A DNA stretch of 64,000 nucleotides from Hydractinia symbiolongicarpus (Eukaryota): NCBI RefSeq assembly GCF_029227915.1, contig NC_079880.1, positions 19,643,855-19,707,854 on the forward strand. The letters are read 5' to 3'. Positions 16,770-46,058 of this stretch are shown here, one piece after another (within the stretch, counting starts at the first letter, position 1; the number at the start of each line of letters is the position of its first letter). The notes below the pieces were generated by a model that did not search any database, was not told the origin of the DNA, and saw only the letters and a program-made list of their open reading frames with translations. The position numbers and the translations under genes are program-made.

Positions 16770-16866
16770 AATGTCTAACAAATCATTCTGAAAAGCGAGT
16801 CTTGTCACATTGCCATTCTCGTCGCCGACAAATAAAAGAATTTGACGGTTTTTCACGTAGCCGATC
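16770..16866 (-). CDS. TEP1: Terminal coding exon of the TEP1-like gene (LIGYVKNRQILLFVGDENGNVTRLAFQNDLLDI*).
   Basis: It is in phase with the upstream exon. The stop is TAA at 16767-16769. It reads as the last WD40 strand. The acceptor is weak. Confidence 0.45.

Positions 16867-46058: not shown

Follow-up and report, generated by a model that had tools for sequence, protein, structure and literature searches.

TEP1 (vault protein p240) is a component of the vault particle and of telomerase and is widely annotated across animals. The ligands of its TROVE/vWA module in mammals are vault RNA and telomerase RNA. Its DUF4062 domain (also NIR) has been described as a TIR-like NAD+ hydrolase (NADase), and the NADase activity of human TEP1 needs E1008 (10.64898/2026.05.01.722283, 10.64898/2026.09.04.749371). 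We analyzed a window of 64,000 nucleotides (nt) from Hydractinia symbiolongicarpus (assembly GCF_029227915.1, contig NC_079880.1, positions 19,643,855 to 19,707,854 of the forward strand); all positions below are those of this window. According to predicted splicing, its minus strand from 46058 to 16767 very probably carries one intact protein-coding gene, a TEP1 orthologue. A TEP1-like single gene had been proposed in an initial annotation, and this reading fits every test run: the bridging exons are in phase, the domain order is that of TEP1 and the profile alignment runs in one stretch.

The best model comprises 42 exons, fewer than the 'more than 45' counted in the initial annotation, with a 7,554-nt coding sequence for 2,517 amino acids (aa), a single terminal stop and none internal. 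All 41 introns are GT-AG and in phase, each with a T-rich acceptor tract. Exon lengths range from 58 to 564 nt (median 150) and intron lengths from 90 to 1,941 nt (median 377); the guanine-plus-cytosine (GC) content is 38.5% in exons and 30.5% in introns. The window itself has a GC content of about 32%, with short open frames between stop-rich stretches; AT-rich DNA with short frames split by stop-rich sequence is typical of eukaryotes. The start ATG occupies 46058-46056, and the stop TAA (16769-16767) directly follows the last sense codon, which extends to 16770. The boundaries first given, 16770-46058, were thus exact, and we kept them because all 33 matches of the control search described below lie inside the gene.

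A profile hidden Markov model (HMM) made from 21 TEP1 homologues was searched against all minus-strand open reading frames (ORFs) of the region. The matches were collinear, from column 17 to column 2255 along window positions 45339 to 16788, with two exceptions: weak WD40-repeat matches at 17711-17604 and 17386-17306 were assigned to earlier repeat columns. As a control, the profile was run against all ORFs of both strands over the whole window and gave 33 matches with an independent E-value (iE) below 0.01. All 33 were on the minus strand inside 16767-46058, a concentration far exceeding chance; the plus strand and the rest of the window gave 0. A first automatic exon chaining read through short in-frame introns and failed at the weakly conserved 3′ end; it was replaced by a profile-anchored run. 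The chaining combined anchors from the profile and from tblastn with codon usage and scores for splice sites, and a handful of junctions were then corrected by hand. About 33 exons came from the automatic chain search alone; the others were adjusted manually, through splitting, trimming, extension or removal.

Pfam analysis of the assembled exons bore out the domain order first proposed (low-complexity N-terminus, TROVE, DUF4062, NACHT, WD40), with scores for the domains above the curated cut-offs. TROVE (PF05731) matched at aa 180-601 with 350.9 bits (cut-off 23), over profile positions 12-442 of 442. This match spans window positions 45521-38520: it covers the exons at 41-46 kb where a TROVE signal had been anticipated, and extends past 41628, the position at which the TROVE exons had been thought to end. 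Downstream were DUF5920 (PF19334; aa 674-768, 41.4 bits, cut-off 27), DUF4062 (aa 803-910, 61-64 bits, cut-off 24.7), NACHT (aa 1072-1236, 43 bits, cut-off 26.7) and an APAF1_C-like helical domain (aa 1421-1545, 26.7 bits, cut-off 22.8). DUF5920 had scored 25.3 bits on the crude ORF concatenation, against 41.4 on the refined model, and NPHP3_N also matched the model (27 bits, cut-off 24.8). The WD40 region (aa ~1539-2506, 237.5 bits, cut-off 27) contains Beta-prop_TEP1_2nd (aa 1894-2116, 206.5 bits, cut-off 89) and Beta-prop_TEP1_C (aa 2445-2506, 116.5 bits, cut-off 32), so that about 980 aa of WD40 propellers close with the TEP1-specific C-terminal propeller. Single ORFs already matched TROVE, DUF4062, P-loop/STAND families, WD40 and the two TEP1-specific propeller families. 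The motifs quoted in the initial annotation were all found on the minus strand where it had placed them: AFYRSG (43377-43320), MLRNIRSM (41737-41628), VFISSTFKDMHGERDLL (34186-33936), GILGARYGW (in the exon 33510-33268) and GKSGSGKT (32174-32151).

The homologues retrieved told the same story for both halves, the best database matches being TEP1 by name or by architecture. A protein search with the crude concatenation of 5′ frames returned entries named telomerase protein component 1 from Branchiostoma, bivalves, fishes, reptiles and mammals, and many of its matches hold TROVE, DUF5920 and DUF4062 in one sequence. With the 3′ frames, TEP1-type proteins of 1,900-2,335 aa were found with E-values down to 7e-143, and generic bacterial WD40/STAND proteins came only below them. 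Against the model, the profile of the 21 homologues gave a single-domain alignment of 2,154.5 bits that pairs columns 4-2255 with aa 177-2511. Its longest deletion spans 10 columns; the model has extra residues in TROVE, as an acidic insert of 36 aa (aa 344-379), and in the propellers, as small inserts. Single BLASTP high-scoring segment pairs of 2,000-2,400 aa at 30-36% identity were obtained with P0124, P0127, P0125 and P0134.

The join between TROVE and DUF4062 exons, singled out for confirmation in the initial annotation, was found to be coding. Seven exons unlisted there (exons 9-15, 40001-34324) bridge the two parts in one frame through GT-AG introns. They encode the TROVE C-terminus, a vWA-like region and DUF5920, the parts that lie between TROVE and DUF4062 in homologues. 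The intron between exon 15 and the DUF4062 exon 16 measures 137 nt. An ATG at 34198 is located within the acceptor tract of this intron (taaatgtctttacag/GTA, the slash marking the splice site here and below) and is therefore not needed as a start codon. The biggest intron of the join (1,941 nt, between exons 11 and 12) splits the vWA-like part and therefore cannot be a gene boundary. Single BLASTP alignments cross the join, with P0127 (aa 183-2255, 36% identity) and with P0124 (aa 227-2246). Similarly, the mammalian TEP1 fragment P0015 (Cervus) gave one local alignment over 99% of a crude TROVE-to-Walker-A query, and the transcriptome-derived ORFs P0004 and P0136 of other species carry TROVE, DUF5920, DUF4062 and the nucleoside triphosphatase (NTPase) in a single ORF. 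At the DNA level, the domains from TROVE to the WD40 propellers are predicted to lie in one polypeptide.

We then examined the active site of DUF4062. The chain 11gz_A of the Protein Data Bank (PDB; 'Telomerase protein component 1', human domain) aligned to the model with an E-value of 8e-58 and 91 identical residues in 208 alignment columns. Its numbering was validated, chain positions 908, 954, 976 and 1008 being R, R, R and E, in agreement with the paper. Human E1008 aligns to E911 and human R976 to R879; both positions are invariant in 19 aligned homologues. The catalytic glutamate is thus kept in the Hydractinia protein, which would be a NAD+ hydrolase as human TEP1 is known to be. From what is known of the families, the TROVE/vWA module would bind small structured RNAs. 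The NACHT domain, whose Walker A (GKSGSGKT) and Walker B (VLFVDG) motifs are intact, would mediate nucleotide-dependent oligomerisation together with the helical domain, and this oligomerisation may turn the NADase on. The WD40 propellers could provide a docking or sensing surface, for example within the vault particle.

Several points weigh against a single intact TEP1 orthologue. The splicing of the 42-exon model is a prediction, and several splice sites were picked by hand to fit the spacing of homologues. Homology supports four exons (39826-39745, 31253-31093, 18172-18046 and 17738-17589) weakly or not at all. Among full-length relatives, the closest are 36-42% identical, and identity to any retrieved sequence is 30-42%. 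Two of the three arginines that contact the sulphate in the human active site differ (R908 is replaced by K811 and R954 by S857); these positions are variable in other TEP1 homologues too, within the normal variation of the family. Finally, the TEP1_N repeats (PF05386) were not found, no Pfam family matching aa 1-211 at E ≤ 0.01. The Pfam check proposed in the initial annotation was therefore positive for TROVE, DUF4062, NACHT and WD40 and negative for TEP1_N. TEP1_N may be a vertebrate or mammalian addition rather than a family-wide requirement, since only two of the matches to the 5′ query, the mammalian fragments P0015 and P0035, have it listed.

The hand-chosen splice sites and the four poorly supported exons would also fit a decaying TEP1 pseudogene or an assembly chimera that looks intact through frame-preserving choices of splice sites. 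We consider this very unlikely: 42 exons give 2,517 codons without a stop, all introns start with GT and close with AG after a pyrimidine-rich acceptor tract, and the automatic chain search placed about 33 exons by itself. Likewise, no deletion in the profile alignment exceeds 10 columns, the catalytic and nucleotide-binding motifs are intact and exons differ from introns in GC content (38.5% versus 30.5%).

There is an equally slim chance that the locus also yields a shorter NWD1-like isoform (TIR-like, NACHT, WD40) devoid of the TROVE half, which the sequence does not demand. The transcript of such an isoform might start at a promoter inside the gene, in the introns of 137 nt or 217 nt, with the in-frame ATG at 34198 or the methionine at aa 788 as start codon. 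If it existed, NADase signalling would be uncoupled from the binding of vault or telomerase RNA.

The most improbable alternative, already raised in the initial annotation, is that of two adjacent same-strand genes, a Ro60-like TROVE/vWA gene (46058 to ~36.3 kb) followed by an NWD1-like DUF4062-NACHT-WD40 gene starting at the ATG 34198: this ATG does come immediately after a stop codon and some database entries are TROVE-only or DUF4062-only fragments of one contig (e.g. P0042 and P0107 of Branchiostoma floridae), but the ATG sits in the pyrimidine tract of a good acceptor, the 137 nt before exon 16 are too short to house both a terminator and a promoter, the frame stays open past the vWA-like part without meeting a stop, and the DUF5920 exons 35729-35599, 34685-34623 and 34405-34324, in phase with both sides, would be orphaned. 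Homology is no kinder to it: the TROVE part is far closer to TEP1 than to other solved TROVE proteins (9l5y and 9kop, E only 2.4e-4), the best matches are never Ro60 or NWD1, the HTH_NWD1 family (PF25469) reaches 16.6 bits, under its cut-off of 27, and long homologues, a mammalian TEP1 fragment and transcriptome ORFs each align across the join in one piece.

The exons of the predicted TEP1 orthologue are given below in order, all on the minus strand and, unless stated otherwise, with the bit scores of the 21-homologue profile. Exon 1 (aa 1-188; 45495-46058) encodes an S/L/K/T-rich N-terminus whose first 176 residues are of low complexity. It lies in an uninterrupted 211-codon ORF with a stop codon immediately upstream, ends at the donor AAG/gtgagc and carries at its extreme N-terminus NPLL/SLL-type motifs shared with P0001 and P0002. 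TROVE starts in exon 2 (aa 189-233; 45208-45342; 34 bits), bordered by the splice sites tttttatag/ and /gtaatg, and continues in exon 3 (aa 234-287; 44669-44830; 79.8 bits, with Pfam TROVE at 55 bits on the ORF) and exon 4 (aa 288-347; 43963-44142; 63.9 bits, tblastn identity to P0002 78%). Exon 5 (aa 348-424; 43471-43700; 52 bits) encodes an acidic D/E-rich insert and then TROVE. Its donor AA/gtatatac was chosen by hand and gives IGKK-YPET as in homologues, and a (ATCATCATT)n array detected by Tandem Repeats Finder (TRF) at 43632-43689 is coding sequence of this exon. The TROVE part proceeds through exon 6 (aa 424-443; 43320-43377; AFYRSG), preceded by an intron of 93 nt, exon 7 (aa 444-477; 42005-42104; KRMKLPVPETWE; 61.9 bits), whose hand-set donor ATTG/gtatgt gives ...EALI-DHKKLPF as in homologues, and exon 8 (aa 477-513; 41628-41737; FMAMLRNIRSM; 54.6 bits).

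Among the bridging exons, exon 9 (aa 514-542; 39917-40001; QFPFRFLSAY) still encodes TROVE, with 32.8 bits and tblastn identities of 62-75%. Exon 10 (aa 542-569; 39745-39826), a basic linker, is the least certain of all and had no profile match; it is required for the reading phase, has good splice sites (tttttag/ and /gtaagtt) and its peptide resembles the basic linker of P0005. Exon 11 (aa 569-627; 38442-38616; 57.2 bits) contains the TROVE end and the start of the vWA-like part, and exon 12 (aa 628-681; 36339-36500; 21.4 bits) the rest of the vWA-like part (LIAFMCKYHCED) and the start of DUF5920. DUF5920 then occupies exon 13 (aa 682-725; 35599-35729; 8.3 bits, iE 0.012), exon 14 (aa 725-746; 34623-34685; GFSDQIL; 13.8 bits) and exon 15 (aa 746-773; 34324-34405; IAERGNTSQLLYVDNIDIAYELK; 29.5 bits, tblastn identity 58%), where it ends.

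The first half of the DUF4062/TIR-like domain (VFISSTFKDMHGERDLL) is encoded by exon 16 (aa 774-857; 33936-34186; 131.7 bits), with the acceptor tctttacag/GTA and a hand-chosen donor AG/gtgcaa that restores the family spacing. Exon 17 (aa 857-938; 33268-33510), supported by alignment to 11gz_A, encodes the second half with GILGARYGW and SITELE; the codon of the catalytic glutamate E911 is at 33350-33348 and that of R879 at 33446-33444. The C-terminal part of the domain follows in exon 18 (aa 938-979; 32818-32940; 16.1 bits), whose donor AA/gtatgt was set by hand and gives MEIYENYPCKWGG as in homologues, and the domain ends in exon 19 (aa 979-1020; 32442-32565; 42.3 bits), which has a long pyrimidine tract before its acceptor.

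NACHT begins in exon 20 (aa 1021-1087; 32142-32342; 35.2 bits, Pfam NACHT 43 bits), with Walker A from aa 1077 at 32174-32151. Exon 21 (aa 1088-1141; 31093-31253) gave a weak match of 2.9 bits; its spacing and its similarity to P0005 were judged by eye. Walker B (30706-30689, from aa 1164) is in exon 22 (aa 1141-1190; 30626-30773; 26.3 bits), and NACHT ends in exon 23 (aa 1191-1251; 30070-30252; 48.8 bits). The helical region comprises exon 24 (aa 1252-1327; 29230-29455; 105.6 bits), assigned to a helical/winged-helix portion, exon 25 (aa 1327-1392; 28733-28928; 13.5 bits), exon 26 (aa 1392-1456; 27973-28165; 50.4 bits), which carries the APAF-1-like domain (Pfam APAF1_C 26.7, cut-off 22.8), and exon 27 (aa 1457-1533; 26930-27159; 41.9 bits). 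Exon 28 (aa 1533-1583; 25734-25884), the linker to the WD40 region, matched weakly (3.1 bits) and is collinear with homologues.

WD40 sequence was recognized in exons 29 (aa 1584-1615; 25462-25557; 10 bits), 30 (aa 1616-1657; 24411-24535; 39.5 bits), 31 (aa 1657-1743; 23630-23888; 68 bits, with Pfam WD40 on the ORF), 32 (aa 1744-1783; 22674-22793; 37.5 bits) and 33 (aa 1784-1816; 22208-22306; 22.1 bits). The Beta-prop_TEP1_2nd match starts in exon 34 (aa 1817-1992; 21253-21780; 70.1 bits), also WD40, as are exons 35 (aa 1993-2074; 20723-20968; 42.2 bits), 36 (aa 2075-2171; 20072-20362; 53.6 bits, with an acidic insert), 37 (aa 2172-2212; 19467-19589; 22 bits) and 38 (aa 2213-2336; 18948-19318; 16.6 bits, donor TT/gtaagt). 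Exon 39 (aa 2336-2378; 18046-18172), WD40-like, is moderately certain: it had no profile match and its boundaries were set by hand, in a 104-codon open frame whose splice sites ttctctag/ and GGA/gtaagt are in phase with both neighbours. Exon 40 (aa 2379-2428; 17589-17738; 5.6 bits), also WD40-like, has a hand-set acceptor. Beta-prop_TEP1_C is encoded by exons 41 (aa 2429-2472; 17288-17419; 12.3 bits) and 42 (aa 2473-2517 and the stop TAA; 16767-16904), the C-terminal peptide of the latter being collinear with the C-terminus of P0122.

Other candidate exons were rejected. The ORF 22030-21905 was regarded as spurious, having no homology and being at odds with the spacing of homologues, and the chain-search exons 41858-41803 and 33027-32996 were dropped on the same grounds. 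An extra DUF5920 exon at ~36000-35940 (GEGSMPNYQTNLIVAMTKHK) is homologue-like, but no acceptor/donor pair matches the neighbouring phases; the profile alignment shows at this place a deletion of 10 columns and no more. Downstream of the gene, a pattern scan found a candidate polyadenylation hexamer (AATAAA or ATTAAA) at 16672-16677 on the minus strand, about 90 nt past the stop, which is weak evidence: at so high an AT content, hexamers of this kind often arise by chance. Over all 64 kb of the window, Rfam detected no RNA family and a tRNA scan no tRNA gene; genes for the major vault protein and for vault RNA are likewise absent from it.

The introns had been described as packed with repeats, which proved overstated. 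Considering similarity within the window and tandem repeats, as distinct from genome-wide interspersed copies, 1,923 of 21,738 intron bases (8.8%) are self-similar, and tandem repeats make up 8.1% of intron bases versus 3.6% outside the gene. The bulk of this intron repeat is a (ATGAATAA)n microsatellite of ~72 copies (26344-26914) in the intron between exons 27 and 28, together with a cluster of inverted and direct repeats (36559-37483) in the 1,941-nt intron between exons 11 and 12. The cluster is a near-perfect foldback with arms of 311 nt (36559-36869 and 37132-37442; 98% complementary) and direct copies of 252 nt (36869-37120 and 37232-37483). It looks like a recent insertion of a foldback element or of one resembling a miniature inverted-repeat transposable element (MITE), or else like a local rearrangement. 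Of the arrays reported by TRF, two fall in coding sequence of low complexity, the exon 5 array at 43632-43689 and another at 45689-45738. In two adjacent TEP1 introns, short diverged copies of a dispersed repeat (40178-40276 and 41118-41313) have translations sharing 'FAMWAC(D/N)NKILVHC' and may belong to an interspersed family of the genome. An (AAAC)n/(AAAT)n microsatellite lies at 427-562, close to the window start.

The window also contains neighbouring features. On the plus strand, an uninterrupted 679-aa ORF (13732-15771) carries three CUB domains (Pfam CUB 115 bits) and, by eye, a transmembrane stretch and a cysteine motif resembling that of low-density-lipoprotein (LDL)-receptor class A; it is convergent with the 3′ end of TEP1, the stop codons being about 1 kb apart. 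A look-up of its exact protein sequence returned no record. Upstream of TEP1, an exon-like plus-strand ORF (59120-59386) matches Biotin_lipoyl of Pfam (58.9 bits), a domain for lipoyl attachment; a dihydrolipoamide acyltransferase (E2) gene probably has its first lipoyl domain here. A retroelement fragment spans 61275-62691 (plus strand). Its part 61503-62033 encodes a reverse-transcriptase domain (RVT_1, 55 bits) and, behind it, a zinc finger of PHD-like type (27 bits); ORFs in other frames adjoin. The fragment probably stems from a retrotransposon without long terminal repeats (non-LTR) whose copy has decayed. Minus-strand ORFs at 2387-5800, one with FFGHTHHDEFRVFYD, resemble by eye exons of an acid-sphingomyelinase-like metallophosphoesterase. 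A 190-aa ORF in the same interval starts, by eye, like a signal peptide and has cysteines of saposin-like pattern; three ORF fragments of this interval were run against Pfam and had no match.

Within the well-known TEP1 family, the gene is an ordinary orthologue of standard architecture and matters little beyond correct annotation. A modest value resides in its being a divergent invertebrate TEP1, at most 42% identical to anything retrieved, in which the catalytic glutamate, the Walker motifs and the TEP1 propellers are conserved, and whose model suggests that the TEP1_N repeats lie outside the conserved core. It offers material for comparison now that the DUF4062 of TEP1 is reported (2026 preprints) as a TIR-like NADase acting inside vault particles.

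Its domain order from TROVE to the C-terminal propeller is that of vertebrate TEP1 and of annotated invertebrate TEP1 (Branchiostoma belcheri, Solemya velum, Lytechinus pictus, Candidula unifasciata). Like TEP1, it is of similar size (2,517 aa), collinear over more than 2,000 aa with long homologues, and possesses the TEP1-specific Pfam families DUF5920, Beta-prop_TEP1_2nd and Beta-prop_TEP1_C. Like human TEP1, its TIR-like domain, matching 11gz_A at 8e-58, keeps the catalytic Glu, whereas K and S stand in place of human R908 and R954. It differs from the mammalian TEP1 fragments P0015 and P0035 in having no TEP1_N repeats by Pfam, and from TEP1 relatives in its acidic 36-aa TROVE insert and small propeller inserts.

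Proteins of the Ro60 (TROVE2, SS-A) or Tetrahymena telomerase p80 type have in common with it the TROVE module with a vWA-like part. They stop after this part (~500-650 aa), whereas the frame in the window runs on into DUF5920, the TIR-like domain, NACHT and WD40, and solved TROVE-only chains match the protein weakly (E 2.4e-4 over 78 residues). NWD1, NWD2, NPHP3 and the bacterial DUF4062/NIR defence proteins (Swarozyc, Avs-NIR, Vulcan, Vesta) have, as here, DUF4062 beside a STAND/NACHT NTPase, and NWD1 and NWD2 also an APAF-1-like helical domain and WD40 repeats. However, they begin with DUF4062, without TROVE, DUF5920 or the TEP1 propeller families, while here DUF4062 starts at aa 803; the NWD1-type winged helix HTH_NWD1 is below its cut-off in our protein. 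The NWD, NPHP3 and bacterial NIR proteins share the catalytic glutamate chemistry (10.64898/2026.05.01.722283, 10.64898/2026.09.04.749371); in the 2026 preprint work on DUF4062, purified human NWD1, NWD2 and NPHP3 were without NADase activity and TEP1 had it.

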